Below, piece by piece: positions 8,316 to 37,181 of a stretch of 64,000 nucleotides of DNA (its first letter is position 1; each line of letters starts with the position of its first letter). The stretch comes from Bdellovibrionales bacterium (GTDB lineage: Bacteria; Bdellovibrionota; Bdellovibrionia; Bdellovibrionales; JAUICD01): contig OZ241865.1 of assembly GCA_965203275.1 (NCBI GenBank), positions 1,472,001-1,536,000 of the forward strand, written 5' to 3'. The position numbers and the translations under genes are program-made. The notes beneath the pieces were generated by a model, which had not been told where the DNA came from, searched no databases, and saw nothing but the letters and a program-made list of their open reading frames with translations.

Positions 8316-9069
8316 AAAAAAAGAACGAACTTCATATAATAACTCTCATGCACAGTTATCTATCAGTGACCTGATGTCTGGCTTGGTGTTTATTTTTATC
8401 ATTATTATTGTTATATTTGCCATACAATTAGATCAAACCAATAAACAAAAAATTCAAGCACTAAATGAACATAAAGAAACCAGTGATGCTCTTGAAGACA
8501 TATTAAAAAACATTCAAAAAAATTTTAAAGAAGAAGAAAATATACAAATAGAAGTGGATCTCGAAAATAAAATATTGCATTTACCGACAGATGTATTGTT
8601 TGAAAGTGGAAAATATACCCTTAATGAAGCAAAAGGTATTCCTATAGTTGAACGTCTGGGATGGCTTTTTAAAAAATATCTTGATTGTTCTGATCAAAAT
8701 CAAAATAAAAATCAAAATAAAATATGTGATGGCGATAAATTAAAATTAGAAACAATATTTATTGAAGGTCACTCTGATGATGTTCCACTAGGCTATAAAT
8801 TAAAACTGATTATAGGGTCAAATCTCAACCTTTCAGTTCAAAGAGCTATTCATACCAATAATGAGATGAAAGATCATATTCAATATCTTAAAAATTATCA
8901 AGGGGATTACTTATTCAGTGTTGTAGGTTATGGTGAAAAAAGACCTCTAACAAAAAAGCCAATTAATTTTAAGAACCTCCCTTTTAAAAAACAAGAAGAA
9001 TATCACAAAAAAAATAGAAGAATTGATTTAAGATTTTTAGTGGGTATCCCAAAAATATTAAGGAATTAA
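8305..9069 (+). CDS. zorB: Zorya ZorB (MotB/OmpA-like)
   Basis: SISDLMSGL TM with the conserved Asp; IEGHSD, NLNLSVQRA, NRRIDLR OmpA motifs. Confidence 0.92.
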   Translation: MLLKKKERTSYNNSHAQLSISDLMSGLVFIFIIIIVIFAIQLDQTNKQKIQALNEHKETSDALEDILKNIQKNFKEEENIQIEVDLENKILHLPTDVLFESGKYTLNEAKGIPIVERLGWLFKKYLDCSDQNQNKNQNKICDGDKLKLETIFIEGHSDDVPLGYKLKLIIGSNLNLSVQRAIHTNNEMKDHIQYLKNYQGDYLFSVVGYGEKRPLTKKPINFKNLPFKKQEEYHKKNRRIDLRFLVGIPKILRN

Positions 9070-9072
9070 GTT

Positions 9073-10494: not shown

Positions 10495-10534
10495 GATATG
10501 TTTTATGAAAAATTAAAAAACTAGAAGATAAACT

Positions 10535-13500
10535 ATGAAACTGATATTTAATATAGAAAAAAATGATGTTCATATCACAGCAAAAGATTCTTTAAATCAA
10601 CGAATTGCTGTAGAGCAATGGTCTACTCAAAATCCCAAGCTTGACTTCATCCATTTACTTCTTGAAGAAGCCAAAGCTTCACAAGATCAATACACATTGA
10701 TCATAGCAAAATCAAACATACCTGATCTCACATCTTATCAAATAGAACAGCTCTCTTTATATCCAGTCATTCCTTACACACTGCACTGTAAATCAACAGG
10801 TACTATTTTAAGAGACAACTATAAAATTATTGTCAATTTTAAAAGTTCTAGTGGTCTGCCACTTGGCAAGATAGAACGAAATGGTCCTTTTGCAAAAGTC
10901 GCAGGCAAAACCTACACTCTGATCAACCCTATTTATGAATCCTTACTGCTTATTGAACAAATCAACCAAAGCAAAGACAAAACAAAATTAATTCATCTTC
11001 AAAAACTTAAAGAAATACTACCTTTTCAATGTCTTAAAAATGATGAATCTTTGATAGAAACAGAAGTTTTTATTGCTAATAATTTTACTTTAAGAGTTAT
11101 TGATAGAGAAAATTTCTTATACACTCCTTGCTTTGTGGATGTAGACAAAGAAGCTGATGAAATGGTCTATTTATTAAATGACAAACAACAACAACAATAT
11201 TCAAAGCAGTTTTTAGATTATAATCAAGTCAAACTTCAAATGCAGATCCAAACTAATCAATTTATAGTTTTACCTCCTCGAACAAAACAGTTGATTGATG
11301 TAGTCAAATCGACCATTTCAAAAAGCTATCAAGAAAAAGCACGACTTTTTGCAAACCCTCATTCTTTTTTTAAAGAAGCTCTAGGAGAAAGTTATCTCAA
11401 TGAGCATGAAGATCTATTTGTTTTAGATCAAGCTTATGCTTCCGATAGGATTAGCCATATAGGAATATGGGAACCTAAAACTCAAGTATTTTTACCTCAA
11501 TATCAAAGTGAATGGTTTCCTCAATATTGTGTTGGCATTCCATTAGACAGAGGAATCATCTTTATGAAACCAGAAAATATAGAAAATAACTGTCAAAAAA
11601 TAGAGCAAGCTATCCGCAATAATATTCCTTTTGTTCAATGTGAAGGGCAAAAGATAAAGGCCACTCAAGAAAATCTTAAATTATTGAAAGAAACAGACGA
11701 AAGAATAAAAAAAGAAATAAAACCATCAGAATTGAATATAAAAGAAGAGAAAAAAGAAAAAAATCCTCCCATTGTAGCTATTATTAAAGACAATTTAGAT
11801 GAAAATGGAGTTTATAGTGCAAATAAAAATAAAAGGCAAATACAAGATGTGTTCTGTCCATCTTTATTAAACATTTCACTTTTTCCGCATCAAAAAGAAG
11901 GACTTTCATGGTTGCAAAATTCATGGAACAAATCTAAAAGAGGTGTTTTGCTAGCTGACGATATGGGGCTTGGTAAAACTTTGCAAATCTTAGCCTTTTT
12001 AGCATGGTTAAAGGAACTTGAACAAAATCAAAAAATAGATAAAAGACCTATTTTAATTATTGCATCTACAGGTCTGCTTAAAAATTGGGAAGACGAACAT
12101 AATAAACATCTAAAGGAGCCAGGCTTGGGTATACCAACAAAAGGATCTGATTTAAAACAACGTTTAATCCAAAAAGGGGAAGATTATATTGTGGATCGTT
12201 TTAAAAAATCTCATTGGGTATTAACGACTTATGATTCACTGGCAAGATACGAAAGTATTTTTGGGCATATTTCATGGCAAGTGATTGTTTTTGATGAGTG
12301 TCAGGCTATTAAAAATCCAAGTTCCTATCGTACAGATAGAGCTAAGATGATGGATGCTGATTTTTCAATTGGTTTAACTGGTACACCTGTTGAAAATAGA
12401 TTAAGTGACTTGTGGTGTATTTCTGACACGTTATATCCAGGCCTTCTTAAAACTTATAAAGAGTTTAAAAAAAGATATGAAGATAAACAAGATCATTTAA
12501 AAGAATTAACTCAAATAATGAAGGAAGGTCATCCTCCGTCCTTTATGCTTAGAAGAATGAAAAAAGATCATATCAAAGGTTTAACTCATAAGAAAGAGAT
12601 CATCAAAAAGGAATTGATGCCTCAAAAACAAACTTCAGGTTATGATGCTATTTTGCAAAAGGTACAATCTCAAAGATATAGAAAGTCTATGGTGGCTATT
12701 CAACATCTTAAGTCTATGAGCTTAGCTTCTAAGTTTGATGAAAACTTAGAAGATCAAGCATTTATAAACAGTTCAGCTAGGTTGATTGCTTTATTTAAAA
12801 TTTTAGATGAGATTGAATCAAGGAGAGAAAAAGTTTTAATATTTTTAGAATCTCGTCATTTGCAAGAAAAACTTATTCCAATTATAAAGAGAAAATACAA
12901 GCTAAATCACTCACCTCTTTTAATCAATGGTCAAGTGGCTGGACAACAAAGAAAACAAAAGGTAGATATTTTTCAAAATTTACCACTAGGATTTGATGTG
13001 ATGATTTTATCTCCTAAAGCTGGTGGAACAGGCTTAACACTCACAAGAGCTAATAATGTTATTCATTTAGAGCGGTGGTGGAATCCAGCAGTAGAAGATC
13101 AATGTTCAGATAGAGTTTATAGAATTGGTCAAAAAAAAGATGTTAATATTTATATTCCTATGGCTATTCATCCATCTATAAAGAGCTTTGATATGGTTTT
13201 ACATGAAAGGCTTAAGAAAAAAAGAGAGTTAAGTCAGAAGGTGATTGTTCCAACAAAACTTGATTCAGAGGATTATAAAGAAATTTTTGAAACAACGACA
13301 GGTGAAACTTTTGAAGATGATCAGGATCAGAAAGATAATTTCTACAAATCCCGAGCATGGCATGAATTGAGATATCGTATCTTTAATAAATATGGGCATA
13401 GATGTCAAAAATGTGGTGCTGATCAGAGTCAATCGACCCTGCATGTGGATCATATCAAACCAAGATCAAAGTATCCTCAATTGGAATTAGACCCTAACAA

Positions 13501-13570
13501 CCTTCAAGTTCTTTGTGAAGAATGTAACTTAGGAAAATCAAACAAACATGAAGATGACTACCGACCTTAG
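10535..13570 (+). CDS. zorD: Zorya ZorD-like SNF2 helicase with C-terminal HNH nuclease
   Basis: LADDMGLGKT, DECQ, TGTPVEN, WWNPAVEDQCSDRVYRIGQ; C-terminal CQKC..HVDHIKP..NLQVLCEECNLGK. Confidence 0.88.
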   Translation: MKLIFNIEKNDVHITAKDSLNQRIAVEQWSTQNPKLDFIHLLLEEAKASQDQYTLIIAKSNIPDLTSYQIEQLSLYPVIPYTLHCKSTGTILRDNYKIIVNFKSSSGLPLGKIERNGPFAKVAGKTYTLINPIYESLLLIEQINQSKDKTKLIHLQKLKEILPFQCLKNDESLIETEVFIANNFTLRVIDRENFLYTPCFVDVDKEADEMVYLLNDKQQQQYSKQFLDYNQVKLQMQIQTNQFIVLPPRTKQLIDVVKSTISKSYQEKARLFANPHSFFKEALGESYLNEHEDLFVLDQAYASDRISHIGIWEPKTQVFLPQYQSEWFPQYCVGIPLDRGIIFMKPENIENNCQKIEQAIRNNIPFVQCEGQKIKATQENLKLLKETDERIKKEIKPSELNIKEEKKEKNPPIVAIIKDNLDENGVYSANKNKRQIQDVFCPSLLNISLFPHQKEGLSWLQNSWNKSKRGVLLADDMGLGKTLQILAFLAWLKELEQNQKIDKRPILIIASTGLLKNWEDEHNKHLKEPGLGIPTKGSDLKQRLIQKGEDYIVDRFKKSHWVLTTYDSLARYESIFGHISWQVIVFDECQAIKNPSSYRTDRAKMMDADFSIGLTGTPVENRLSDLWCISDTLYPGLLKTYKEFKKRYEDKQDHLKELTQIMKEGHPPSFMLRRMKKDHIKGLTHKKEIIKKELMPQKQTSGYDAILQKVQSQRYRKSMVAIQHLKSMSLASKFDENLEDQAFINSSARLIALFKILDEIESRREKVLIFLESRHLQEKLIPIIKRKYKLNHSPLLINGQVAGQQRKQKVDIFQNLPLGFDVMILSPKAGGTGLTLTRANNVIHLERWWNPAVEDQCSDRVYRIGQKKDVNIYIPMAIHPSIKSFDMVLHERLKKKRELSQKVIVPTKLDSEDYKEIFETTTGETFEDDQDQKDNFYKSRAWHELRYRIFNKYGHRCQKCGADQSQSTLHVDHIKPRSKYPQLELDPNNLQVLCEECNLGKSNKHEDDYRP

Positions 13571-13632: not shown

Positions 13633-13665
13633 TTTTTAAAATTTTTGTATCATCTTGAAACACTT
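13633..13665 (+). repeat. 33-bp direct repeat, right of Zorya
   Basis: Exact match to 5969-6001. Confidence 0.9.
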
Positions 13666-13742
13666 GATAAGTTTCAATCTCACATCACACCAATCATACG
13701 TTCATACGTTGAAGCAAATTTAATTTGTTTAAACTATATTTT

Positions 13743-14118
13743 AAAAGTCAAAAGAGGTGGGCAAAAATAAATTTGATTTTTTTAAGAAAAGCAACAAACA
13801 TTTGAATTTTTTAGTGAAGAAGCCACCATCAACAATATAAGCTATTCTGTCCATTTCAAAAAGCCTTTAAAAACCTTATAAAACTGTAAGCTTTATAAAA
13901 AAATTGGCCTAAGTGTCCAACCCTAAAGTTTTTTATTAGGGAATAAGGAACAGAGACCCGTGTATTTTCATATCTTTACATATAATCTTCGCCTAAATAA
14001 TCTAAAAAGTCAAGAGGAATGAGCAAATAAATTTTTTAAAACAATAAAAAGCACCATCAACTCCATCTATTCATCCATCGTAGAAGCTTAAAACCCTCAA
14101 ATATCTTGACAAAATTGG
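13743..14118. repeat. Inter-cassette element, copy 1
   Basis: Near-identical to 20186-20567 and 24778-25183. Confidence 0.92.
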
Positions 14119-14134
14119 GATTTAGCATTATACT
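14106..14134 (+). promoter_or_regulatory. Sigma70-type promoter at the right end of the element
   Basis: TTGACA-17 nt-TATACT. Confidence 0.7.
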
Positions 14135-14451
14135 TCCAATCAAAATTTAATTATTAAACTTATTTTAAAGGAGGTGCAAAATACCAAAAAGATATGCAAT
14201 TACAACAGATTAAATGACAAATTATTTTAGATACATACAATGAAATTAAGAAAAATATGGCATTCGCTATATCATCTAAGTATGACTAGGAATGAGGATG
14301 TATTAGATGGATAAGCCATCAATTCCATTGACTCCATTCCCATCACAGAAAAATAAAAATATTTTATATTTGATGAAGATATGATTTATCTCAAAAGATG
14401 TTGCATATTGCTTAAAGTTATGATATAAGTAGCTTTCATGTAACAAAGGAG

Positions 14452-14997
14452 ATGCTTATGCTGAAAAAGTATTTAATTTATATTTTATTTCAAAGTAATA
14501 TTTTGATTTTACTTGCTCCCACTAGTAGTTATGGAGTTTTTAATTTTGTTTCAACAGGGATTGAAGAATTAAATGTCGATGGAACTGAGATTAAAATTAA
14601 CCAAAGTAGATCAGAGTATTGTATTCAAAAAGCTAGCGAAGGAAAATATGTGCTTTGTTTCCCTCATGCTGAAATGTATATCACACAAAGAGGTGAAACA
14701 AATGATATCACTCATATCCTTAAGGAATGGGATGGTTTTTTTGTTTTCTTTGTCAAAATAAGAACGAATCAATATGCTGTGGATTTGAATAGTGATGGAA
14801 AAAAAGAAATCGCTATTGTACCTCAAGTCTCTGGAGGAGGTGCTATTAGTTTGCCAGCTTATCTCTATACTATAACGGATCATGGCTTAGCACCTTATGG
14901 TGAAGGAAGATTTTTTTGGGAAAATGGCCAGAAGGTCTTACTTGGTTGCCCTCAATGTTCAAAGTTTAACTTAGGAGCTTGTAATTCTTGCTATTAA
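14452..14997 (+). CDS. Exported hypothetical protein with FG-GAP/EF-hand-like motif and Cys-rich tail
   Basis: RBS AAGGAG; signal-like N-terminus; DLNSDGKKEI; CPQC..CNSC. Confidence 0.65.
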   Translation: MLMLKKYLIYILFQSNILILLAPTSSYGVFNFVSTGIEELNVDGTEIKINQSRSEYCIQKASEGKYVLCFPHAEMYITQRGETNDITHILKEWDGFFVFFVKIRTNQYAVDLNSDGKKEIAIVPQVSGGGAISLPAYLYTITDHGLAPYGEGRFFWENGQKVLLGCPQCSKFNLGACNSCY

Positions 14998-15037
14998 AAA
15001 TTTGAGCTATTTTAAGCTATAAAAAATAAGTTTTCTT

Positions 15038-15349
15038 ATGACATTTGGTTATCTTGAAGTAGGTTTTGCACTGATCACAAGCTTGTGGTTTTATGCAGTG
15101 ATTTTCTGCAAATCCAATTACGAAGCTGAAAAACATAACGAGATCACAAATGCCAATAAGGCAAGAGCTTTAAAAACTTTTCGAGTTTTTGTAGATGGTA
15201 GCGATGCTCAGTCAATCAAAGATGCAATGCTTTTACTTGCAGGTCAGGCAGCGTTTTACACACCAACAAGTGGCTTTAGAAAAAATGAAAAAGAAATTCC
15301 GCTTCCACCTCTTGCCCAAACTGCAAAGCAATTTTACAAAGAAAAATAA
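15038..15349 (+). pseudogene. Probable 3' fragment of a membrane/coiled-coil hypothetical protein
   Basis: Starts at a TM helix without an RBS; 103 aa. Confidence 0.4.
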
Positions 15350-15518
15350 AGACTTACTTAAACCCCTGCTTTGATAATCTTTTTTAGACTTGTCAGAAGC
15401 TTATCAAATGCTTTTCAGAATACAAAATATATTTTCAACTGAAAAAATCAATTATTTAAGATAACATATCACTGAACATATATAATATAACATCCAAAGA
15501 AAATCCTTAAAAACAAAT

Positions 15519-16148
15519 TTAAAATAACTCTAATTGTTGTGTATAATCTAAATGATTTTTAAAAGGCTTTTCTCTTTTTTTCAAAATAATTTCTTCTCCT
15601 ATTGATTGATCTATAAGTTGCCTTAAATCAACCACTGCACCAAATTTTAAAAATGTACTAAAGAATTTTTCATATTTTTTACCCCAATAGACCATTGCAC
15701 AAGACATTGGAGCTCCTTTCCCTTCTTTATCTCCATCTTCTAAAAATTTTAACCGGGTTTCATATAAAAAACACACTGCAATAGCTTTGCCCCATATATA
15801 TTCTTTCCAATGACTTGTATTGCTTGCTACTGGAATTAATGCTAACACTTCTGAATGAAATTGTTTATTTGCATTTGCACACTTACATAACCAATTTTTT
15901 ATTGTTGTCCCTCTGTGTCTATCTGCTCCGTAAGGGGGATTGACATATATTGTTTTATAATCCCAATGGGCATTTAATCCATCATTTTCAGGTAAAGAAA
16001 GTTCTATTTTTGCATTGACTTTTGACCATTGGTTGGAACAAGGATCAAACTCTATGACCCCTTCAAATACTTGCTTAACTGCTTTAATATACTTAAGCGG
16101 AGTACACCAATCAGTGCTTTGAGAATTAACTGTGCGACCTGCTGTCAT
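15519..16148 (-). CDS. DNA N6-adenine methyltransferase (phage Dam-like)
   Basis: DWCTP, FDPCS, VNPPYG, LIP motifs. Confidence 0.88.
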   Translation of the reverse strand: MTAGRTVNSQSTDWCTPLKYIKAVKQVFEGVIEFDPCSNQWSKVNAKIELSLPENDGLNAHWDYKTIYVNPPYGADRHRGTTIKNWLCKCANANKQFHSEVLALIPVASNTSHWKEYIWGKAIAVCFLYETRLKFLEDGDKEGKGAPMSCAMVYWGKKYEKFFSTFLKFGAVVDLRQLIDQSIGEEIILKKREKPFKNHLDYTQQLELF

Positions 16149-16290
16149 TTAAGTATCCTCTCCCATTTTTTAGATGAAAGAAAAGCCAAATCTTTTTTTA
16201 AATTTTTAATATCCTGATGAGCGGGTGCTATGACAGTAAACCATTTTTCAATTTCTAATAAATTTTCTTTAAATTTGTAAATTTTTTCAT
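16145..16290 (-). pseudogene. 3' remnant of a gene translationally coupled to the MTase
   Basis: Open frame YEKIYKFKENLLEIEKWF..WERILK ends in an ATGA overlap with the MTase start. Confidence 0.4.
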
Positions 16291-16419
16291 ATTTTTTAAT
16301 CCTTGTTTAATATCTAAATGGGACTCATGTATAGTAAGAGAAGTGTTTGTTATCAGCAAATTGCATTAAAATAGATTGTACTGTCAAGAAATACTAAAAA
16401 ATATCTTTAAAAGAGATTT

Positions 16420-17190
16420 TTTAGTAAAAGTGGTCTGACCTCTGTTTCCCTAAAATTGAACTAGCCGTCATTTTCACTCAAAATGCATCATGCCGTCTTT
16501 TGCACTTGAAATGAACCACACCTCTGTTTCCCTAAAATTGAACTAGCCTCTGGCTACTTTTGGGCAGTTAGCCCGACGACTGTCGTCGTCGATCAAAGGC
16601 TAACTCCCTCAAAAGCTTGTTCAATTTTAGGAAGAAGGATGTCCTCATTTCTTAACAGCATGTTAAGGAAAAAGAGTTTCATTTGTAAACCTGCTTGCTC
16701 TTAAGGCAATAAAAGAACTTTTTCCCTAACATGGTGTAAAGGAGTAAAAAGATCCTCCCCTACTCAAAATGCATAGATTTTTGAGGCAATGACTATTTTG
16801 TCAACGTGAAGTAAACATCTTGTTTCCTTAACATCGTGTAAAGAGACAAGAGGATTCTTCTTACTAAAAATAAACGGATTTTTGAGGCATTGCTCTTTTT
16901 GGACAGCGTAAGCTGTCAGAGCAATGCCCAAAAACAGCCAGAGGCTGGTTTATTTTTAGTGAAACAAACGCGGTCATTGCCCAAGGTGTAAGAAGGAACT
17001 TTTTCCTTAACATGTGGTCAAGAGACGAAGAGATTCTTCTTCCTAAAATTGAACAAGCTTTTGAGGCGGTTAGCCTTTGATCGACGGCGGTAGCCGTCGG
17101 GCTAACTGCCCAAAAGTAGCCAGAGGCTAGTTCAATTTTAGGGAAACAGAGGCATGATGCATTTTGAGTGAAATATTAAGGAAAAAGATT
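16420..17190. repeat. Cluster of multi-stem palindromic elements in both orientations
   Basis: Repeated CCAGAGG side hairpins, CCTTAACA..TGTTAAG, CGACGGC-GGTA-GCCGTCG. Confidence 0.88.
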
Positions 17191-17269
17191 ACTTAGATAC
17201 AATTGCAAAAGAAAGTTTTAATCAGAAAGGAATCTTTAGTGTTCTTATAATATTGCTTGTTCAAAAAAA

Positions 17270-17932
17270 TTATTTTTTCATTTTTTGTTTTCTAGCCTCT
17301 AAGATTCTTAAATGCTGTTTTTTCTCTTCGTCTCCATCTCTACAGCATTTTTTATATTTCTTCCTGCTTCCACAAGGACATTTTTCATTTTTTCCTATTT
17401 TCTTAAGTGAAGTTATATATTTTTTGCTATCTTCTATAGCTTCCTCTATACCTTTTTTGCCATGAGAATATTCCCCGCATGGTGGTATTTTCCTATACTT
17501 TTCATAATAAGCTTGCCATACAAAATATGGGTAAACTCTGTAAATAATAAAATCTTTGAGAGATGCGGTTCTTTTAAGGGGAATCAATTCTAAACAACAA
17601 CTCTTGTCATTAGGATAGAGGTGTAAATCTTGAACTTTTTTGTTTAATTTTTTTGCCAGTCTTTCAATTTTTTCACCGATCTCATATACTTTTGGCCATC
17701 CTAGTGGATGATTATTAAAGTCAATTTCTATGAGATACTCACCTGTAACACATTCATTTTCATTTGTTTCACAAGGCTTTATCTCCCACTGATCTATGGA
17801 ATTTTCTTTTTTCACATAGTGACAGGGATGAATAATAATATGACCGGTAATTTTATTATCATTCTGACAATATTTAAGATCAGGAAACCATTTAAGAGTT
17901 TCTTTAAAATCATTACTTGAATATTCTATCAT
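17270..17932 (-). CDS. CBASS-associated prokaryotic E2-like protein with C-terminal SEC-C zinc motif
   Basis: PKVYE..DLHLYPNDKSCCL E2-like His/Cys motif; KIGKNEKCPCGSRKKYKKCC; overlaps the CD-NTase stop. Confidence 0.7.
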   Translation of the reverse strand: MIEYSSNDFKETLKWFPDLKYCQNDNKITGHIIIHPCHYVKKENSIDQWEIKPCETNENECVTGEYLIEIDFNNHPLGWPKVYEIGEKIERLAKKLNKKVQDLHLYPNDKSCCLELIPLKRTASLKDFIIYRVYPYFVWQAYYEKYRKIPPCGEYSHGKKGIEEAIEDSKKYITSLKKIGKNEKCPCGSRKKYKKCCRDGDEEKKQHLRILEARKQKMKK

Positions 17933-18902
17933 CAAACGCATAAGGTTTAGTTGCTGGTACTGTAGGAAGAATAGCACTTTCTTTACGAGAAGACGAAGAA
18001 TCTATCAATCGACCAAAATGATCACCGAATAATTCACGCCATTTTTTGACGCTACTATTGTAATCTTCTTCTTCAAAAGCTTGATTAATTTTTCCATTAT
18101 ACGAATTAAACTTTTCTCTAAAATTCTTATATTTTACTTCATCCCAATGCCTGTTGAAATCCTCACTTGACATCACTGGATTTTTAATAATTGGCATAGA
18201 TGGACGGTTTTGCAAAAAATTATTTAGTCTATTTGAGAGGGTTTTCAAAGTTGTTGGTAAATCTGAAAAGCTTTCACTGTCTTTATCATCAGTTTGCACC
18301 ATATTACCTAAAAGAGTGGTCAACAGTATTGACTTAACAGAAAAGTTATCTTTATGATCTCTCAAAAATTTTAAAAGTCTAGTCACCTTTCTAAAATTAT
18401 TATTACCAACAATTTCATTTTTTTGTGCTAGCCATTGTTTATATCCATCACCATCTGTTGGCTCATATTTGCTATCGTTTCTATTAGTGATATAATGTAC
18501 TTCATTATGTTCTACACAAGGGACAATATCTAAGTGAAAATCACCAGCATAATTAATTGTCACACATCTTGTCTTTTTATTGATCTTATCTTCGTAATTG
18601 CCATTATTTTTGAATATCTCATAAATTTTTCTTACATAGTCAGTTTTAAAATCATTTGGATTAAAATCAGAATCCTGAATAAATATCAATAGATCAGCAT
18701 CAAACTCGTCATTATCTTTTACAGGTTTAATAATAGTTTTATGGGCATAAGAACCTTGCTCACTAAACTTTCTGTAACCTGACAAATTTTCTTTAAGTAA
18801 TTTCGTGATTGTTTCTATGCGTCCTTTTAATGTATCTAACCGGTCTTGATTAAGATCTACACGCTTAGACAAAAAATCTTTAAAATCTCTTTCGTGCTTC
18901 AT
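17913..18902 (-). CDS. CBASS CD-NTase (SMODS nucleotidyltransferase)
   Basis: QGSYAHKTIIKP, EFDADL, RCVTINYAGDFHLDIVP. Confidence 0.93.
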   Translation of the reverse strand: MKHERDFKDFLSKRVDLNQDRLDTLKGRIETITKLLKENLSGYRKFSEQGSYAHKTIIKPVKDNDEFDADLLIFIQDSDFNPNDFKTDYVRKIYEIFKNNGNYEDKINKKTRCVTINYAGDFHLDIVPCVEHNEVHYITNRNDSKYEPTDGDGYKQWLAQKNEIVGNNNFRKVTRLLKFLRDHKDNFSVKSILLTTLLGNMVQTDDKDSESFSDLPTTLKTLSNRLNNFLQNRPSMPIIKNPVMSSEDFNRHWDEVKYKNFREKFNSYNGKINQAFEEEDYNSSVKKWRELFGDHFGRLIDSSSSRKESAILPTVPATKPYAFDDRIFK

Positions 18903-19823
18903 TTATACCTCCTTAAGAAAATTCTTAATTTTTGCACTTTGGTTTGTAAACTCTTGCTTTGCTTTTTCTTTGAAATTAGCTATTTCTCTATAATTGTCAA
19001 GACTACAATATTCGATATTTGGATTAATTCTCAAAATATTGTCTTTATTATCCTTAAAAATCAAATTTAAGACATTTTCTGGAAACTTTGTCTGACAAGA
19101 CATAACAAAATCTACAAATTTAGTTTTTTCCCATCCATATAATAGTCCCCAATTTTTTGATTTTTGATAACATTGTTCTGATTTTCCAGTTCCTATAGAT
19201 AATATTTTGACATTATTTGTCTTTGCTTTAAAATTATTAATAGCATCTGTATAACCCACAAGAGCGGGATTATTTGCCCATATACCTCCATCACAAATAA
19301 GAGTTCCATTTATATTTACTGGGTCAAAATAAGTTGGTGTTGCACAAGAAGCTAAAACAGCTTTAAATAAAGGTATTTCGCCATCTCTCACATAGCCAGC
19401 GTTTCCTCTTTGCTTCTGCTGGTAAGCCGACTTAAAAACATGGACGTCTCCCATACTGACATTTGTAGCATTAAGAATAAGAGGTTTTTTAATTTCTCCT
19501 AGCTTTTTCTCTTTGAATTTCTGGTGAAGAAATATCTCTAAGTGATGATTATTATATTTTGATCTAAAAAGTCCACATAAATTCCATTGTTTTTGAAAAA
19601 TCTCAGGAGCCTTTTCTGAGTAATCATCAACTAATTGAGCTAAATCACTGTCTATTGCCACTGTTCCAGCTACAATGCTCCCTGTGCTTGTACCGACAAT
19701 AAGATCAAAAGTATCATGTATTTTTATATTTAGCTTTGCTTCTATAAGAGCTAATATCTTAGTAGCAAATATTCCCTTTATCCCACCTCCATCAATACTT
19801 AAAATTTTAAACATTTTATTCAT
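18903..19823 (-). CDS. Patatin-like phospholipase CBASS effector (CapV-like)
   Basis: DGGGIKG, GTSTG, DGGIWANNP; immediately upstream of the CD-NTase. Confidence 0.9.
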   Translation of the reverse strand: MNKMFKILSIDGGGIKGIFATKILALIEAKLNIKIHDTFDLIVGTSTGSIVAGTVAIDSDLAQLVDDYSEKAPEIFQKQWNLCGLFRSKYNNHHLEIFLHQKFKEKKLGEIKKPLILNATNVSMGDVHVFKSAYQQKQRGNAGYVRDGEIPLFKAVLASCATPTYFDPVNINGTLICDGGIWANNPALVGYTDAINNFKAKTNNVKILSIGTGKSEQCYQKSKNWGLLYGWEKTKFVDFVMSCQTKFPENVLNLIFKDNKDNILRINPNIEYCSLDNYREIANFKEKAKQEFTNQSAKIKNFLKEV

Positions 19824-19900
19824 TTATATACCCTTCTTGCAATGATCATGTCTAAGTAATTTCAATGGATTATATTATTTCCACCTATTGTAAACAGTCT

Positions 19901-20122
19901 TTATCCTAGATTATTACTCCTTCTTCCATCAGGATTAGATACAGGAGTTTTTATTCCATTAATCTTTCTTATATGGTAACTAGGATACTTTTCACGCTCT
20001 ATTCCTCTGACAAATTGAGGTCTAGTCATCTTTTTGTGTGTTTTTTTATCAATAAAAAGCACATTTCGACCTGTCTCTGACTTTTTATCAACTTCGATTG
20101 CTTTTCTATTATTTTTTACCAT
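19901..20122 (-). CDS. Small DUF3892-like protein
   Basis: 73 aa ending SNPDGRRSNNLG; RBS AAGGGG. Confidence 0.6.
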   Translation of the reverse strand: MVKNNRKAIEVDKKSETGRNVLFIDKKTHKKMTRPQFVRGIEREKYPSYHIRKINGIKTPVSNPDGRRSNNLG

Positions 20123-20185
20123 TATTTACCCCCTTATATTATTAGTAATAACAAACATACCCTTTCACTTTAGAGCTTTATAAAA

Positions 20186-20567
20186 AAGTGTGTTCGATAG
20201 AAAAAAAGTCAAGGAGGTGGGCAAAAATAAATTTGATTTTTTTAAGAAAGGCAACAAACATTTGAATTTTTTAGTGAAGAAGCCACCATCAACAATATAA
20301 GCTATTCTGTCCATTTCAAAAAGCCTCTAAGAAACCTCTAAGCTTTATAAAAAAATGGGCCTAAGTGTCCAACCCTAAAGTTTATTAGGGAATAAGGAAC
20401 AGAGACCCGTGTATTTTCATATCTTTATATATAATCTTCGCCTAAATGATCTAAAAAGTCAAGAGGAATAGGCAAATAAATTTTTTAAAACAATAAAAGG
20501 CACCATTAACTCCATCTACTCCCCTATCGTAGAAGCTTAAAAACCTCAAATACCTTGACAAAATTGG
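20186..20567. repeat. Inter-cassette element, copy 2
   Basis: Matches copies 1 and 3; lies between the divergent CBASS and protease genes. Confidence 0.92.
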
Positions 20568-20639
20568 AACTATTCAATCAAATAAGAAACAGTTTTGTAA
20601 TTATACGTACATGAAAATATAACTAAAAAAGGAAAAAAT

Positions 20640-21311
20640 ATGATTACTTCTAAATATATTCAAAATACCTTTCTCATTAAACATGATAATAAATGCGGAT
20701 CTTGTTTTAAAGTTATTAAAACAAAAAAATATTCATATCTAATCACAGCAAAACATGTTATCTCAAAATTAAAAGATAATGATATTATAAAAATATATTT
20801 TAATAATCCTCATGGCTGGTATGATATAAAAGCCATTAAAATTCTTCATTGCGATGATACTGATATATCTATTTTTGTTTTTGATGATTCAAAAAAAACA
20901 TCAGTAACTTTTCAATTACCTATGAGTTCTAATCATTTAATTTGTGGTCAAGATATTTTTATTTTAGGATTCCCTCTTGAAATAACTCAAGATACAAGAA
21001 TACAAGATCAAGAATCTTCAACTCCCCTTCCTTTAATAAAGAAAGGAGCTTTATCAGGTATAACGCCCGTTGACAAGAAAACTATTTTTTATGTGGATAT
21101 ACATATTAATCAAGGATTTTCTGGAGGCCCCGCTTTATTTAAAAATCAATTTGATAATGAAATAAAAATTTTTGGCGTTGTTTCAAGCTACATCTGTGAT
21201 CAAATTAAAGGGAAAAACGTTTTAGCCAATAGTGGCATTGGCCTTGTTGAATGTATCTCTTCTGCCTCTAAAATTATTGAGCAGGCTAGGAAAGAACTAC
21301 AAGATACATAA
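20640..21311 (+). CDS. Cytoplasmic trypsin-like serine protease
   Basis: ITAKHV, DISIF, GFSGGP catalytic triad motifs; no signal peptide. Confidence 0.85.
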   Translation: MITSKYIQNTFLIKHDNKCGSCFKVIKTKKYSYLITAKHVISKLKDNDIIKIYFNNPHGWYDIKAIKILHCDDTDISIFVFDDSKKTSVTFQLPMSSNHLICGQDIFILGFPLEITQDTRIQDQESSTPLPLIKKGALSGITPVDKKTIFYVDIHINQGFSGGPALFKNQFDNEIKIFGVVSSYICDQIKGKNVLANSGIGLVECISSASKIIEQARKELQDT

Positions 21312-21349
21312 AGTCTCATTTAAAAGTTTAAGTAATAAATAAAAATACT

Positions 21350-22722
21350 ATGAAAAAGAAACAAAAATTAAATATCTTAAAAAGAGATAATTATAAATGT
21401 GGTATTCATTTAGGTGGTTGTGGTAAAAAACTTTCTCTTGATTCGATGACCATTGATCATATTGTTCCAAAAAATATATTGAAAGGATGCAAGGAGTATA
21501 AAAAACAATTTAAAAAGTACAAATTTATAGATAATGAGTTCTTTAATCTGCAACCTATGTGTTTAGAATGTAAAAGCAAAAAACAAGGCAATTTTCCTCC
21601 AAATAACATAGTAAAAAATGTTCTAATAAATGTTGCAATTTTATTTATCTTAAATATGAAAAAAAGAGTAAATATTATTTAGTCTTTATTCATTATCTGT
21701 TAAAAGATGCTGAAAATCTTCATTATTCAAACGAACCATCAGCAATGAACTGTGTAGCTTTTATATTTAATTTCATACAAATTCAATTCAAATATGCAGA
21801 TGGAAGTAAGTCACCACAAATATATATGTTAAGAGGTGAAAGTAAGAATTATGTAGGTTTTCAAAAGAATAAAGTGGGAGGTTTAGTTTCTGAAGTAGAT
21901 ATGATCAGAAACAACCAACAATATGGCCAAAAAGAAATATCCGAAGCTATAAAACATCTAAATATTCAGCTTAAAAGAATTGACAAACCAAGGTTGCTCC
22001 TAATTTCTGAAATAAGCCAGTGGCATATAAGAATAGCAGTGGAAGGAAATATTTCTGAGTATTCAAAAGCAATTAAAGAAAGTAAAAATAGTATTGAAAA
22101 ATACTATAGTGAATGCCACTCTTTTTATGGAGTTACTGTTTTATGTGAATTTCAAGGCAAAAAAATCATAGAACAACATCCTCTATCTGCTCAATATCTT
22201 TCTTTTGGAACTCAATTTCCAAATAAACCTCAATTGAAAGGTCAATCAACTCATGCATTAGTGTCAATAGATAAACTGAAAAAAGAGAATATAACAGATT
22301 ATTTATTGAAATCATATATCATATTTATATATCAATTATGGGAAACACGCTTTCGCTCTGAAATAGCAAATCATTTTGGTATTGAAAACACAAATGTAAG
22401 GTGTGATTTTTTTGGTGATTTAAGGGTGATAAGAAATAGTTTGATACATGAAAGTGCATCAATGTTAAGGAAAGATGTAGAAAATTTTAAAGTCCTCAAG
22501 TTTGGATTAAATAAAAATCTTACAAAAGGAATTTTAATCACGTCCCCTGCAATACTTGGACATATTATGGAACAACTCAACTTAATGCAAATAGATATAG
22601 CATTGAAAGATAAGTATATTACTTTCAAAATGTGTCCTGTTGTCGCTGATTCTATAATAAAAGGGCAACTACATTATCAGACAGAAACCAGACATAATCT
22701 AAATATAACCCCATTATTATAG
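21350..22722 (+). CDS. HNH endonuclease with C-terminal HEPN-like motif; apparent single frameshift at the A-run ~21613-21618
   Basis: RDNYKCG..CG..TIDHIVP..NLQPMCLEC; adding one A joins it stop-free to ORF 21745-22722, which has DLRVIRNSLIH (RX4H). Confidence 0.65.
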
Positions 22723-22843
22723 ATCAATTTTAGTTAGAGCTACTCATAAAAGAGGAACTCCTGTATGCGATTTTGAATTATCTGCAAATTCAGTAAATTG
22801 ACAAGAGTATTTAATAAATTCTTTTAATTCATCAATGTTTATT

Positions 22844-23269
22844 TTATCTATATTTGATAATTTTAGAAAGTAATGATTTTATTTTTGCAAAAAATCTAAC
22901 AGGCTTCTTTTCTTTTTCAATATTTAATTGTTTTTCTTGTATTTGATAATATTTCTCTTTTTTGAGTAAGTCTTTCCTTCTTCCTTCTAAAATTTCTTTT
23001 TTAGACCATCTTCTACTCCAAATAATATTACTATTTTTTATCCAATAGTGAGATTTACAATTAAAGCTCCAGTTTCCTATAGAAGGATCAAGTGAAATAG
23101 TATATCCATTATAGATAATTTTCCAATCTGTAGGACTTATAGGCGTGACGACTTCTTCACCACATCCACAAAAACAATTATGAGAAGCTGTATTATATTT
23201 TATAGAAATATAGATAATATTATCTTCTAAGACATTTGGAATATTTGTAACAAATTTATGTTTGATCAT
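22844..23269 (-). CDS. DUF6527-family protein
   Basis: HNCFCGCGEEVVTP, SLDPSIGNWSFNCKSHYWI. Confidence 0.8.
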   Translation of the reverse strand: MIKHKFVTNIPNVLEDNIIYISIKYNTASHNCFCGCGEEVVTPISPTDWKIIYNGYTISLDPSIGNWSFNCKSHYWIKNSNIIWSRRWSKKEILEGRRKDLLKKEKYYQIQEKQLNIEKEKKPVRFFAKIKSLLSKIIKYR

Positions 23270-24440
23270 CTACTTTGTCCTCATTTATTAAAGAATTGCA
23301 CTCTATTTGATATAAAGTAGTATACTCTTTACTACAATCAAAATAAAATTCGTTTATTTTTTTCCACTTTATTACAGCTAGGGAAGCATTAAGAGCATTA
23401 AGTTCAGCAACTTGAATATTTGTTGAATATGGATCATTATTGCCATCAGAATATGAAACTCTATTATCAAGATGATTTTTCTTATCTTTTGTGCATAGAG
23501 TAGTTCTTACATTACCAAGTATTTTTTGATCTTGATTACAAAGTCCCATTCCTACATCAATAAATGGTATCTCTTTATTGATGAGAAAATTGAATAATTC
23601 TTTTTTAACACATCCTTGATCTATACAGATGAAAACAAAGCTTTTTTCTGATAATTTATTAAACTTAGATGATTTAATATTATATGGATAAGAGATGATA
23701 TTTTTGTGCATTTTCGAATAAACTTCCTTTAAATAATTCGTTTTTTTGACTTTTTCATTTAAATTTTCCTTTGAAGCTACTCCAGGAGTTCTAAAGGCAT
23801 TATGATTTAAAAAAATATCACCATCAAATAAACTGATTTCTCTGACAGGTGTTTTTGCAACAAAATCTAAGATATAAGCTCCAGTTCCTCCCAAACCTAT
23901 AATGGCAATTTTTTGATCTTTTAACTTCATAGATATATTATTAATATTAGATTTACTTGAATTGGTATCTTTATACTGAAATACAGAATTATCCATATCT
24001 TTATCTTTAGATATAGATTGTCTAGAAGTTGCTGTCACAGAAGAGTCTATTGATTGAGCTGGATGAGAAATAATACGAACATAATTAGTTATTTTTTCAT
24101 AATAATCTTTATATCCCTCATTTGGCTTATTTGAAAATGAATATTGAATATCATAACCAGCAATATTTTCATTTTTTGATTCATTTCGAATTGACTCTAT
24201 AGGGTTCCCTTGATTATCACAAGGATACTCCCCTGTAAAGAAAATAACGTGGGTTTCTGGCTTAACTGTTTTATCTCCGGCTAGTGTTAAAGCTGATATA
24301 AGCTCACCGTATTTAATTTCTTTTTTGGAATTGATATATGGAATCTTATGAACAATTAGATAAGAATCCTTTATTTCAAGCTTATAACCATCTTCTTTAA
24401 GTTTTTTTAAATCAGAGCTATGATTTATCAGTTTTTGTGA
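23256..24440 (-). CDS. ThiF/E1-like adenylyltransferase with N-terminal DUF6791-like domain
   Basis: IAIIGLGGTG, LFDGD..HNAFR, FIDVGMG, NIQVAELNALNA; likely GTG start at SQKLINHS overlapping the Ubl end. Confidence 0.85.
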   Translation of the reverse strand, partial: SQKLINHSSDLKKLKEDGYKLEIKDSYLIVHKIPYINSKKEIKYGELISALTLAGDKTVKPETHVIFFTGEYPCDNQGNPIESIRNESKNENIAGYDIQYSFSNKPNEGYKDYYEKITNYVRIISHPAQSIDSSVTATSRQSISKDKDMDNSVFQYKDTNSSKSNINNISMKLKDQKIAIIGLGGTGAYILDFVAKTPVREISLFDGDIFLNHNAFRTPGVASKENLNEKVKKTNYLKEVYSKMHKNIISYPYNIKSSKFNKLSEKSFVFICIDQGCVKKELFNFLINKEIPFIDVGMGLCNQDQKILGNVRTTLCTKDKKNHLDNRVSYSDGNNDPYSTNIQVAELNALNASLAVIKWKKINEFYFDCSKEYTTLYQIECNSLINEDKVDDQT

Positions 24441-24711
24441 CACTAAACACCATCCCATCTTCAATATTTACTTCTTTGCCAGCTACAAGACTACCTTTTC
24501 TATCTGTTTGGATATGTGTATAGGTCACTGTATAAGCAATATCCGGATTATTAAAATCTGTATTGTCAAAAGCTAACTTTACAACATCTTCAAAGGTTAG
24601 CGTTCTTTTTGGAGGGACTTTATCCCTACCATTAACAATGATTTTCATTTTATTTTCTTGTTTTTCCTGATGATCAGGATTGCTTTTACCATTTTTTTCA
24701 ATATTTGACAT
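24418..24711 (-). CDS. Multiubiquitin-domain (beta-grasp) Ubl protein
   Basis: IIVNGR..LTFEDVVKLAF..YTVTY..GSL..G..V.IEDGMVFSVTKTDKS; RBS AGGAGG. Confidence 0.8.
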   Translation of the reverse strand: MSNIEKNGKSNPDHQEKQENKMKIIVNGRDKVPPKRTLTFEDVVKLAFDNTDFNNPDIAYTVTYTHIQTDRKGSLVAGKEVNIEDGMVFSVTKTDKS

Positions 24712-24777
24712 AAGAAACCTCCTATCAAATTAAGTTAAATTTAATGCTTTAAAGACAAATAAACCCTAATACTTATA

Positions 24778-25183
24778 AAGTGTGTTCGATAGAAAAAAAG
24801 TCAAGGAGGTGGGCAAAAATAAATTTGATTTTTTAAAGAAAAGCAACAAACATTTGACTTTTTAAAAGGCAAGAAATAGCTACCATCAACAATATAAGCT
24901 ATTCTGTCCATTTCAAAAAGCCTCTGAAAACCTTATAAACCTTAAAAACCTATAAGCTTTATAAAAAAATGGGCCTAAGTGTCCAACCCTAAAGTTTTTT
25001 ATTAGGGAATAAGGAACAGAGACCCGTGTATTTTCATATCTTTATATAATCTTCGCCTAAATAATCTAAAAAGTCAAGAGGAATGAGCAAATAAATTTTT
25101 TAAAACAATAAAAGGCACCATTAACTCCATCTACTCCTCCATCGTAGAAGCTTAAAACCCTCAAGTACCTTGACAAAATTTGG
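24778..25183. repeat. Inter-cassette element, copy 3
   Basis: Matches copies 1 and 2; directly upstream of the Ubl operon. Confidence 0.92.
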
Positions 25184-25252: not shown

Positions 25253-25608
25253 ATGAAAGAAAAGAAACGAGTAAAAACGGTGGTAATGGGAACACCAACA
25301 ATAAGAGCATTGTTAATAATGGCCAGCTCTTTACAAGAAGTCTCTGATTTGCTACTAAGAACATCAGAAACATTTGACAGTCAAACTTGACTGCTGATTC
25401 TCAATTAAAATCTATGGATATAATGTGGGGAACAAGTATTCTTTTACCTTTTATTTGTGAGTTAGGCTTAACATCATTATATTTATTAGACAATCAAGGA
25501 ACTCAAATGATTCCTAAAAAACATTCCTTATTGTATTGGTGGAATAGGTTAAAAAAAGATACTAAAGATAAAATAACACAACAATTTGAAAATGGTTTTA
25601 TAATATGA
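25253..25608 (+). pseudogene. Degenerate HEPN-like ORF (frameshift ~25385, truncated)
   Basis: MKEKKRV.. frame shifts into ..FICELGL..KKHSLLYWWNRL, resembling the HEPN E..L/H.L pattern. Confidence 0.35.
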
Positions 25609-25654
25609 TTTTAAATAATTGACTCAGATACTATTTATTGATATTTTTTATAAA

Positions 25655-25930
25655 ATGAAATGGCAGGTTAAAATTTCAAATAAAATGGTAAAGCGAATGA
25701 TTAAGCTTCCAAAATTAGTTAAGGAGAATCTTACTAAGCTCATAGTGGAAATGGAAATTTTAGGACCTGTAAGAGGCAATTGGAAAAATTATGGTAAGCT
25801 AGGAAGAAACAAACATCATTGTCATATCAAAACAGGCAAGCCCACTTATGTTATGTGTTGGAAAGTATTCAAAGAAAGAAAAATAATTTAGGTTTATTAT
25901 GTCGGAAGCCATGAAAAAGCACCCTACTAA
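25655..25930 (+). pseudogene. RelE/ParE-like toxin with in-frame TAG at 25889-25891
   Basis: W.V.I..GPVRGNWKNYGKL..HHCHIK..PTYV.CW; reading through TAG gives VYYVGSHEKAPY*. Confidence 0.7.
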
Positions 25931-26276
25931 AGACGAAAGAGTGTCTATTTGGATTGGAAATAAAAAGGCTAAATTATATCTTATTCCAAAGAAAAAGGCA
26001 AAAGCCTTGTCTGATATGTTAGAAGAATATAAAAGTGAAGAAAGTATTCCCTGGAGAGATGCTTTGACTGATTTGATCAGTGAAACCAGTCAACAAGCTA
26101 TCGTTTTGAGAGATTCAAGACGTGAAAAAAATCTATCTCAAAAAAAGTTGGCAAAAATTTTAAAGGTTGATCCTTCTTTTATCACTCAAATTGAAAAAGG
26201 TGAAAAAAAGATCAACAAGCCCCTTGCGAAAAAGTTAGCAGAAGTTTTTAATACAGATTATAGAATTTTCCTATAA
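25899..26276 (+). CDS. XRE/HTH antitoxin
   Basis: LSQKKLAKILKVDPSFITQIEKG; directly after the toxin. Confidence 0.85.
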   Translation: MSEAMKKHPTKDERVSIWIGNKKAKLYLIPKKKAKALSDMLEEYKSEESIPWRDALTDLISETSQQAIVLRDSRREKNLSQKKLAKILKVDPSFITQIEKGEKKINKPLAKKLAEVFNTDYRIFL

Positions 26277-26361
26277 CCTTATAAGAAGTCAAATATCTTA
26301 TACCTTAAAAAATAAACACAACCATCACCTCCATCTACTCCCCCTACTTTAAATAGATATT

Positions 26362-27323: not shown

Positions 27324-27638
27324 AAAATCCTTAGAAACAAATTTAAAATAACTCTGATTGTTGTGTATAATCTAAGTGATTTTTAAAAGGCTTTTCTCTT
27401 TTTTTCAAAATAATTTCTTCTCCTATTGATTGATCTATAAGTTGCCTTAAATCAACCACTGCACCAAATTTTAAAAATGTACTAAAGAATTTTTTCATAT
27501 TTTTTAATCCTTGTTTAATATCTAAAAAGTCAAATAAAATAGGACTCATATATGGTAAGAACAGAGCTTGTTATCAGCAAATTGCATTAAAATAGATTGT
27601 ACTGTCAAGAAATACTAAAGAAAGGTCTTAAAAAGATT
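27324..27638 (-). repeat. Internally deleted duplicate of the MTase locus
   Basis: 27324-27502 matches 15500-15680; 27490-27638 matches 16283-16420. Confidence 0.85.
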
Positions 27639-27869: not shown

Positions 27870-28199
27870 ATGAGATTTTTATTTTTAGTTTTAATAATAT
27901 GTTTGGCTTCAGTAGAAGCCAGAGCTGAAAGATCGGAAAGTCTATTTAAATACTTAGGTAGGCAGATTAAAAACATGGACGAAAGGATGACTAAAAATGC
28001 AAAAGCCAATAGAGCTGACTGGCGGAGAGAGAATTCCTGTATTAGAAGATGTTATCATAACCAGTTAGGTATTAAAAGGCCTTCAAAGGGTGTTGAAAGG
28101 AGAAGGTTTTTTAGAAAGAGAAATAGAATACTGAACAGGTGCAGGTCAGGTTGCATCCGCGAAAGGATGTTAAGAAATGAAGACATCCTCCCCTACTAA
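27870..28199 (+). CDS. Small secreted Arg/Cys-rich protein; 3' end runs into a repeat
   Basis: RBS AAGGAG; signal peptide; CIRRC, CRSGC. Confidence 0.55.
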   Translation: MRFLFLVLIICLASVEARAERSESLFKYLGRQIKNMDERMTKNAKANRADWRRENSCIRRCYHNQLGIKRPSKGVERRRFFRKRNRILNRCRSGCIRERMLRNEDILPY

Positions 28200-29225
28200 A
28201 AGTGGTCAGACAGCAAGCTTCTCTGAAGCTTGCCATGTAACAACACTAGGCAATGACCATTTTGTCAATGGCGAAATATCAAAGTGAAATAAACATTTTG
28301 TTTCCATAACATCGTGTTCATCTGGGATCCGGGATCGGGCAATCCGGCATCAAAAGGAAATTTTTCCTTAACATGGTGTTAAAAAATGAGGATATCCTCC
28401 TTCCTAAAATTGAACAGGCTTTTAAGGGTATCAGGCAGAAAAGGCATTTTGTTTCCTTAACATGATGTTGATCCGGGATCCCGGGATCCGGCAACCCGGC
28501 ATCAAAAAGAATTGTTTCCTTAACATCATGTTAAGAAACGATGAGATTCTCTCTACTCAAAGTGAACAGTCTTTCTAGGCGATGACCATTTTGTCAACGT
28601 GAAATAAACATCTTGTTTCCTTAACATCGTGTAAAGAGACAAGAGGATTCTTCCTATTAAAAATAAACGGATTTTTGAGGCAATCAGCCTTTGATCGACG
28701 GCGAGAGCCGTCGGGCTGATTGCCCAAAAACAGCCAGAGGCTGGTTTATTTTTAGTGAGACAAACGCGGTCATTGCCCGAGGTGTAAGAAGGAACTTTTT
28801 CCTTAACATAATGTTAAGAAATGAGGAGATCCTCCTTCCTAAAATTGAACAGGCTTTTGAGGCAGTTAGCCTTTGATCGACGGCGAGAGCCGTCGGGCTG
28901 ATTGCCCAAAAACAGCCAGAGGCTGGTTTATTTTTAGTGAGATAACGCCCAAAACACACCAGAGGTGTGGTTCATTTCAAGGGAAACAGAGGCTGGTTTG
29001 CTTTTAGTGAGACAAATGCGGTCATTGCCCGAGGTGTAAGAAGGAACTTTTTCCTTAACATGATGTTAAGAAATGAGGACATCCTCCTTCCTAAAATTGA
29101 ACAGGCTTTTGAGGCAGTTAGCCTTTGATCGACAGCGACAGCCGTCGGGCTAACTGCCCAAAAGTAGCCAGAGGCTAGTTCAATTTTAGGGAAACAGAGG
29201 TCAGACCACTTTTAGTGAAACAACC
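28165..29225. repeat. Cluster of multi-stem palindromic elements with GATCCGG-type heptamer tracts
   Basis: Several ~105-bp units and linker hairpins. Confidence 0.88.
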
Positions 29226-36970: not shown

Positions 36971-37181
36971 TATGACGATGCAAAAATTCAAAACTTACCA
37001 ATTAGCTACTGAGTTTTATCGTAACTCTAAAAAATTACATCTGAAAGAGTCTCATAGAAGTCAATTTCGAAGGGCTGTTTCAAGTATTGTACTTAACTTA
37101 GCTGAAGGATCTGCTAAGCCTACAGCAAAAGATCGTAGGAAATTTTATTATATTAGTCTTGGCTCTCTAATATCTCAATGA
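36971..37181 (+). pseudogene. Four-helix-bundle protein (23S rRNA IVS protein/bAvd-like), 3'-truncated at a repeat
   Basis: SQFRRAVSSIVLNLAEGS..KDRRKFYYISLGSL; RBS AGGAGG. Confidence 0.8.

Follow-up and report, generated by a model that had tools for sequence, protein, structure and literature searches.

Three stretches of about 380 nucleotides (nt), nearly identical and all in the same orientation, separate the anti-phage cassettes of a defence island in the genome of a Bdellovibrionales bacterium, and their position raises the question of whether they form a dedicated element that assembles and controls these cassettes. The window examined here is the whole 64,000-nt stretch of DNA, corresponding to positions 1472001-1536000 of contig C1 in the genome referred to below as G000 (2.57 Mb, single contig, 90% complete). 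A preliminary description of the window had taken the repeat for a dedicated non-coding element. Sequence comparison indicates instead that it is a chimera of two gene remnants, the start of an accessory NYN nuclease gene and the end of a fused HsdM-HsdS (HsdM-S) restriction-modification gene, and not a purpose-built non-coding spacer. The 380-nt chimera likely acts, with a probability that we put at roughly 0.6, as a common homology anchor for the RecA-type gain, exchange and loop-out of defence cassettes.

Structure and distribution of the composite repeat

BLASTN and alignment delimit the three copies and their associated blocks as follows, in coordinates of the window:

13743-14118, plus strand, composite repeat copy 1
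20186-20567, plus strand, composite repeat copy 2
24778-25183, plus strand, composite repeat copy 3, with an inner patch (24859-24900) 90% identical to two sites of a second defence island
14119-14205, plus strand, start of a decayed small gene beyond copy 1, with an intact counterpart behind an HsdM-S remnant of the second island
13743-13801, minus strand, left block of copy 1, with a leftward TTGACT box and AT-rich upstream sequence; equivalents at 20204-20261 and 24796-24853

As first described, the three co-oriented copies are closely alike and BLASTN finds no further copy in the 64-kb window. Their pairwise identity is 88-92% (gapped), with 19-23 substitutions per 361-372 ungapped columns in addition to insertions and deletions (indels). 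Genome-wide, BLASTN detects copies and partial copies in two defence islands only, the partial copies lying in the second island (G000 2184785-2193526). All seven of the best profile matches in G000 (E 0.031 or better) fall inside these islands, without dispersal, and no copy or partial copy adjoins housekeeping genes. Every copy lies at a border between cassettes. Among 60 related genomes compared at the DNA level, the only real match is in G001, which belongs to the same genus as G000; matches in G007 and G019 were rejected as AT-rich coding sequence.

The limits of the repeat are less sharp than initially proposed. Identity was thought to end just past an outward TTGACA; copies 2 and 3 remain alike up to 20584 and 25199, and the likeness of copy 1 runs about 90 nt beyond its right edge (14039-14205, 81%) and takes in decayed sequence of a small gene whose intact form lies in the second island. 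For copy 1 the duplication thus extends into a flanking gene, an outcome that the preliminary description had itself named as contrary to its view. The additional fragment noticed at 26285-26347 is real, and turns out to be a composite of an HsdM-S stub (26307-26344) and the tail of an antitoxin cassette common to the second island (26285-26311).

The division of each copy into two diverged subunits is borne out, their likeness being reached by 0, 1 and 2 of 1000 shuffles. It rests on the TTGACT box with its AT-rich upstream sequence and on a 10-nt word present in the reversed NYN start and in the HsdM-S end. The genome has 221 occurrences of the 9-mer containing the TTGACT box, and the same box heads a duplicated Dam remnant. 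The left block may be an older, diverged copy of the right-hand block. An imperfect inverted match of 16-21 nt, which may be due to chance or mark a common regulator site, is found upstream of both outward -35 boxes in copy 1 (13766-13786/14087-14107) and copy 2 (20231-20246/20536-20551). In addition, the left flank of copy 1 (13655-13760) resembles the promoter and leader to the right of the second-island HsdM-S remnant (0/1000 shuffles), which suggests an older, collapsed unit.

Parentage of the two halves

Read on the minus strand, the left two-thirds of the repeat correspond to the 5' portion of an accessory nuclease gene of the NYN/DUF88 type, with its promoter, a hairpin leader and 10-20 initial codons. 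The right third comprises the last codons and stop codon of a fused HsdM-HsdS gene, followed by a downstream -35 box. The corresponding features are:

13795-13854, minus strand, NYN stub of copy 1, codons 1-20, with its ATG at 13854 (tblastn, Pfam PF01936)
20255-20314, minus strand, NYN stub of copy 2, codons 1-20 (tblastn)
24882-24911, minus strand, NYN stub of copy 3, about 10 codons ahead of the imported patch (tblastn)
14039-14091, 20488-20540 and 25103-25155, plus strand, HsdM-S 3' stubs with stop codon in copies 1-3, 81-85% identical in DNA to a second-island remnant
26307-26344, plus strand, fourth HsdM-S 3' stub, identical at 37/37 nt to the longest second-island remnant

The NYN stubs of copies 1 and 2 share 16 of 20 residues (80%) with the start of an intact NYN gene in G001, where the matching DNA stands directly upstream of this gene of 225 amino acids (aa) and includes the same leader. 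A tblastn search of G000 found no intact NYN gene of this accessory type, only an unrelated LabA-type NYN gene elsewhere.

The longest remnant in the second island encodes 72 aa with a Methylase_S match and is 75% identical, over 99% of its length, to its best longer relative, P0003, an 840-aa protein with N6_Mtase and Methylase_S domains. A second remnant of the same island matches P0003 at E 3e-17 and provides the parent likeness for the stubs of copies 1-3. A short stub at 2184796-2184749 has a weak protein match (E 8.4) and is in register over 26 nt to the left and 12 nt to the right. Altogether G000 has seven HsdM-S 3' stubs, none outside the two defence islands and all of one orientation in a given island, as well as two related variant sites (0/1000 shuffles). 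The 42-nt patch of copy 3 comes from the variant sites of the second island. Stub length is 35-100 nt, with one of about 200 nt. A search of G000 gave no full-length match to P0003, and two weak matches to the HsdM-S remnant in related genomes were rejected as AT-rich coding sequence. A 15-nt stub pattern gives three matches in G000 and one or two scattered matches in 32 of 383 other genomes.

Relatives of P0003 have identical terminal residues followed by variable tails. The idea that these tails mark a fixed attachment site was dropped, since the tails differ throughout the family and at the DNA level resemble one another in diverged form. At one metagenomic HsdM-S locus (L171), a diverged second copy of the gene's own 3' end lies about 2.3 kb downstream (approximately 8430-8530 and 10830-10910).

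The NYN leader RNA

The leader of the NYN remnant is predicted to fold in all three copies, downstream of a putative promoter:

13895-13965, minus strand, NYN leader hairpin of copy 1, predicted to be interrupted and 65 nt long, with a U run after it; z -3.1
20347-20414, minus strand, NYN leader hairpin of copy 2; z -4.6
24961-25031, minus strand, NYN leader hairpin of copy 3; z -4.1
13966-14013, minus strand, putative NYN-leader promoter with TTGACT at 14013 (also at 20462 and 25077), outside the listed consensus-scan matches

The position of this promoter agrees with the -35 and -10 boxes of intact accessory NYN genes. The AT-rich stretch in the centre is the -10 region of the NYN promoter, and its interpretation as a dif-like site was given up for this reason. 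An equivalent hairpin precedes intact NYN genes in five other genomes (G001 and four more; z -1.8 to -5.3). When the pairing is scored over the same eight sequences from which the structure was derived, three of them near-duplicates, pairing is seen in 94.5% of cells, and both sides have changed in 5 of 16 pairs. These values are reached by 0 and 1 of 500 shuffles, and slid controls give 30-56%. The leader has been retained in the three G000 copies though the nuclease gene is lost, and it is less variable among them than the rest of the repeat (1/68 vs 29/293 columns; Fisher p 0.025, the imported patch being counted in the 293).

Hairpins upstream of NYN genes extend beyond this locus. A z of -2.5 or lower was obtained for 21 of 25 accessory NYN genes of this order vs 4 of 30 LabA-type controls, in a survey where the choice of the best window inflates both groups, 9 of 34 loci were dropped for want of a start motif and kin are not independent. 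Five plasmid-borne NYN genes from other phyla gave leader z values of -4.0, -1.5, -3.8, +0.2 and -2.9. Accessory NYN/DUF88 genes have a promoter, a hairpin RNA and a U run immediately before them; at least three sequence types of this arrangement occur within the order, and plasmids of other phyla have it too. The leader is a candidate for an RNA antitoxin or an attenuator.

The element loci (7 sources) have no credible counterpart in Rfam, and 20 NYN loci are likewise without match except for adjacent pieces of tmRNA. A 27-nt leader pattern has no match in metagenome contigs, a looser pattern gives 14 viral matches, none near an NYN gene, and phages and plasmids yielded no match. No relevant description of an NYN-linked RNA antitoxin was found in the literature, in a search that left most subscription papers and preprint supplements outside and hence does not imply absence from print. 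In the second island (2184960-2185945), a TIR (ThsB-like)-8xMP operon is headed by the NYN promoter with the 5' half of its leader, which there takes a different, shorter hairpin fold and lacks the U run.

Cassettes at the borders

Copies 2 and 3 have different cassettes reading away on either side, and copy 1 stands between a Zorya operon and the decayed small gene:

6168-13570, plus strand, Zorya type I operon ZorA-D, left of copy 1 (PADLOC)
17270-20122, minus strand, CBASS (cyclic oligonucleotide-based anti-phage signalling system) cassette with phospholipase, cyclase and E2 genes and a 73-aa open reading frame (ORF) at its head, leftward from copy 2
20640-22722, plus strand, trypsin-like, HNH and unknown genes, rightward from copy 2
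22844-24711, minus strand, ubiquitin-like operon (Multi_ubiq, DUF6791-ThiF, DUF6527), which we take to be of the Bil/Bub type, leftward from copy 3
25619-26276, plus strand, putative toxin (no family match) and helix-turn-helix antitoxin

The antitoxin of the last pair recurs with 98% identity in the second island (~2.185-2.193 Mb), which also carries the TIR-8xMP operon, a RelE-type pair, a C5 methylase and a type III methylase. Several duplicated and partial type III methylase genes adjoin this island (L015 14313-20000, L001 1-7765).

Other sequences of the window are also duplicated. A Dam-family methylase gene (15500-16414) has a second copy (27324-27636) whose middle is deleted between two short direct repeats. 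A 96-nt fragment at 17178-17273, between hairpin repeats and the CBASS E2 gene, is 93% identical to a putative restriction nuclease gene of the second island. Very abundant hairpin repeats, with thousands of matches in the genome, occupy 5560-5830, 16420-17175, 28167-29220, 37155-39500 and 58300-60570. Additionally, ORFs without Pfam match lead operons beside copy 2 (73 aa, 19898-20122, minus strand) and copy 3 (45 aa, 25253-25390, plus strand), and ZorD (10535-13570) ends in a C-terminal HNH domain, vs the Mrr-like nuclease named in the PADLOC model.

Junctions and sister strains

The match of three stubs to the longest remnant, followed in register, stops 15, 26 and 77 nt to the left of their common anchor, and therefore no single crossover accounts for the left junctions. 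Contigs of three sequencing studies were compared with the assembly; among the sequencing runs listed, none was of RNA. The contigs of two studies (X1, X3) agree with the assembly, and those from runs X7-X9 of the third study, recorded as sponge metagenomes, show different neighbours at the same blocks. Contigs of X7 and X9 have HsdM-S coding sequence to the left of 26307, and an X8 contig has another HsdS-like end followed by the second-island promoter. In X7, a stub with a different tail is found, as well as the left flank of copy 3 joined to a copy-2-like interior; in X9, the antitoxin is joined to the second-island flank. A near-zero cover of the CBASS and trypsin cassettes in X7 was set aside given its depth of 2-6. 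The confinement to defence islands, together with these differing neighbours, makes cassette reshuffling at these points likely; cassette assembly, as envisaged at the outset, is supported to this extent, and a dedicated recombination module is not.

How the repeat may work

The homology-anchor reading starts from the observed parentage of both halves, the confinement to defence islands, the scattered junctions, the patch shared between islands and the alternative neighbours in sister strains. The region downstream of the HsdM-S gene would be a variable defence slot in this lineage, and incoming alleles would pair at the conserved end of that gene. On the other side they would be fused at short AT-rich microhomologies, or the cassettes could enter as circles, and each gain would leave another HsdM-S stub. 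Once an NYN start had been fused to one stub, the resulting 380-nt unit would be the longest common anchor and would be copied along with new cassettes. Promoter boxes would move with it and probably help to express some cassettes. Duplicated scraps beyond the repeat (the Dam copy, the nuclease fragment) show a similar habit, and recA, comEC and dprA are present in G000.

Several observations weigh against this explanation. The HsdM-S stubs of copies 1-3 are assigned from DNA likeness, their own peptides being unranked in a protein-profile search, and their left part matches the reference remnant weakly. Of 29 intact HsdM-S loci sampled in other environments (those of 80 with a complete gene and 1.5 kb downstream), a single one has a second 3'-end copy nearby, and the duplication is therefore no general trait of the HsdM-S family. 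Since the copies have diverged by 5-6% plus indels, RecA exchange between them is expected to be slower. The junction at 26307 coincides in G000 and X8, as a site-specific crossover would predict. The sister-strain contigs are 91-99% alike, 150-680 nt long and of depth 2-7, and some may derive from the second island. Finally, no excision or circle was seen in the contig data, none of the joints listed linking two copies, with 52 joints beyond those listed.

Alternative explanations

It is unlikely, in our estimation, that the copies are passive relics, that is, a few segmental duplications in a repeat-rich, rearranging genome that are now decaying and have no ongoing role for cassettes. Both parent genes are indeed ruined, the islands contain many other duplicated scraps, the cumulative GC skew of G000 is irregular and flat, and hairpin repeats match the genome thousands of times. 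Passive decay agrees less well with the position of every copy at a cassette border, with the other partners that sister strains show at the same blocks and with the lower variability of the leader.

A bolder extension of the homology anchor is speculative and rather improbable. The restriction-modification gene end would be a reusable, integrase-free dock from which an array of defence cassettes is gained and looped out, the orphan NYN antitoxin-like RNA would shield against incoming NYN cassettes, and the NYN gene with its leader would represent an undescribed, widespread RNA toxin-antitoxin family.

The HsdM-S 3' end could also be the attachment site of a site-specific recombinase acting in trans, with the cassettes as integrated units. 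The seven stubs and two variant sites, co-oriented and at cassette borders, would fit such a site, as would the subunits alike beyond chance and the two junctions coinciding at 26307. A possible enzyme is a tyrosine recombinase of 187 aa (G000 2047789-2048352) without assigned family; it consists of the catalytic part only, reaches no family cut-off and lies among housekeeping genes. Several resolvases are found elsewhere in the genome, the nearest about 30 kb from the second island. We nevertheless judge this explanation improbable, since cassettes are found on both strands, left junctions scatter by 60 nt or more, and the recombinases are more than 400 kb from the window island. Two tyrosine recombinases, over 500 kb off, score 55 and 54 bits vs a cut-off of 265 for integron integrases. 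In G000, a genome 90% complete, genes for an integron integrase, a large serine recombinase or an IS110 transposase (PF02371) were not found. The folding of 7/7 strands was no better than that of shuffles (z +1.3 to -1.3), which gives no attC-like fold, and no paired R''/R' attC boxes were found, only one box per strand. For the 28-bp dif site with its XerC and XerD arms, a search with an XerD arm gave only AT-rich matches with 2 mismatches. As the preliminary description had noted, no transposase or terminal inverted repeat is visible; neither was a target duplication found, the longest common flank word being 4-6 nt. A linked recombinase, which that description had proposed to look for, is absent from the window island. 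With the chimeric parentage and variable left junctions, this leaves little room for a portable, integron-like module.

That the repeat is a portable expression module, whose outward promoters drive the flanking defence operons and whose inner hairpin insulates them, is very improbable. The outward boxes noticed earlier are present in all three copies (TTGACA at 14106, 20555 and 25170; TTGACT at 13751, 20212 and 24804), and one complete promoter was found:

14106-14134, plus strand, full outward sigma-70-type promoter TTGACA-17-TATACT, in copy 1 only (consensus scan)

The other five positions have no passing -10 box, including the leftward TTGACT block of copy 1, and the scan itself gave 82 matches in the region vs 74.6 in shuffles. 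The proposed bidirectional promoter activity is plausible only in part, the one full outward promoter standing in a copy that faces the Zorya end and the decayed gene, and the TTGACT 9-mer is widespread in the genome. In favour of expression from the repeat, the distance from TTGACA to the following start codon is 85 nt in copy 2 and 83 nt in copy 3, so that weak promoters are possible there, leftward genes begin about 65 nt past these copies, and the NYN promoter with half its leader heads the TIR-8xMP operon of the second island.

Finally, a tandem stitching of alternative strain alleles during assembly is scarcely credible: none of the contigs listed covers an entire copy or all of the stretch, and one of the X1 and X3 studies may have produced the assembly, but contigs of both match it with 0-2 differences over the right edges of copies 1, 2 and 3, 20493-24806 is a single contig identical in both, and the copies carry private differences.

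Comparison with known systems

In integrons, whose cassettes mostly lack promoters and share one orientation, defence cassettes may lie between co-oriented attC repeats, and the present locus resembles them in having defence cassettes separated by co-oriented repeats. It differs in that no IntI, attC hairpin or paired core boxes were found and in that its cassettes contain several genes, lie on both strands and have their own promoters. In hsdS shufflons, type I restriction systems carry repeated hsdS-type sequence within one region, as does this island with its repeated hsdS-type 3' sequence; the copies here are direct stubs without target-recognition domains, and neither an intact recipient gene nor a linked invertase was found. 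Miniature inverted-repeat transposable elements and insertion sequence ends are distinguished by terminal inverted repeats, target duplication and genome-wide dispersal, which are missing here, and bridge-RNA elements of the IS110 type by PF02371, not found in G000.

Closer likenesses are found in systems without their own recombinase. PMC7843796, which cites Palmieri et al. 2013, describes unconventional circularizable structures as recombinase-free gene blocks between long direct repeats. Both cases have cargo between long, co-oriented direct repeats of gene sequence rather than of transposition genes. The cargo is anti-phage here and not resistance, two different genes contributed the stubs that make up the repeats, whose likeness is 88-92%, and no circle was seen among the contigs. 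Homology-facilitated illegitimate recombination in naturally competent bacteria, according to PMC6382021, combines one homologous anchor with short microhomology and depends on RecA. Anchor, microhomology and competence genes would be shared with our locus; it is a process and not an element, however, and here one anchor would be reused many times.

The inner part of the repeat recalls the type III-like RNA toxin-antitoxin layout of AbiF with the RNA RCd22, which 10.1101/2025.04.15.648962 presents as a promoter and a short structured RNA ending in a U run, followed by a promoterless nuclease gene. A promoter, structured RNA and terminator likewise precede the nuclease gene in G001 and four other genomes, where the arrangement is intact. 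The nuclease here is of the NYN (PF01936) and not the Abi_2 family, no Rfam match was obtained (the abiF motif being RF03085), and in G000 the RNA has no intact toxin gene beside it, only stubs of 10-20 codons. A literature search on repeat-anchored defence cassettes found nothing relevant, subscription papers being mostly outside its reach, so that absence from print is not implied.

Implications

The repeat, first put forward as a candidate undescribed system, is better understood as remnants of genes at the borders between cassettes, a variant of the homology-driven growth already known for islands. For the growth of defence islands without an integrase, the seven gene-end stubs of this genome would be a readable record of homology-anchored accretion, its repeats offering a ready substrate for the question of RecA dependence. 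They also call for caution with apparently non-coding spacers of defence islands, which can be leftovers of genes. Moreover, the NYN leader RNA provides a separate, testable lead to what may be a new family of RNA-controlled nucleases.

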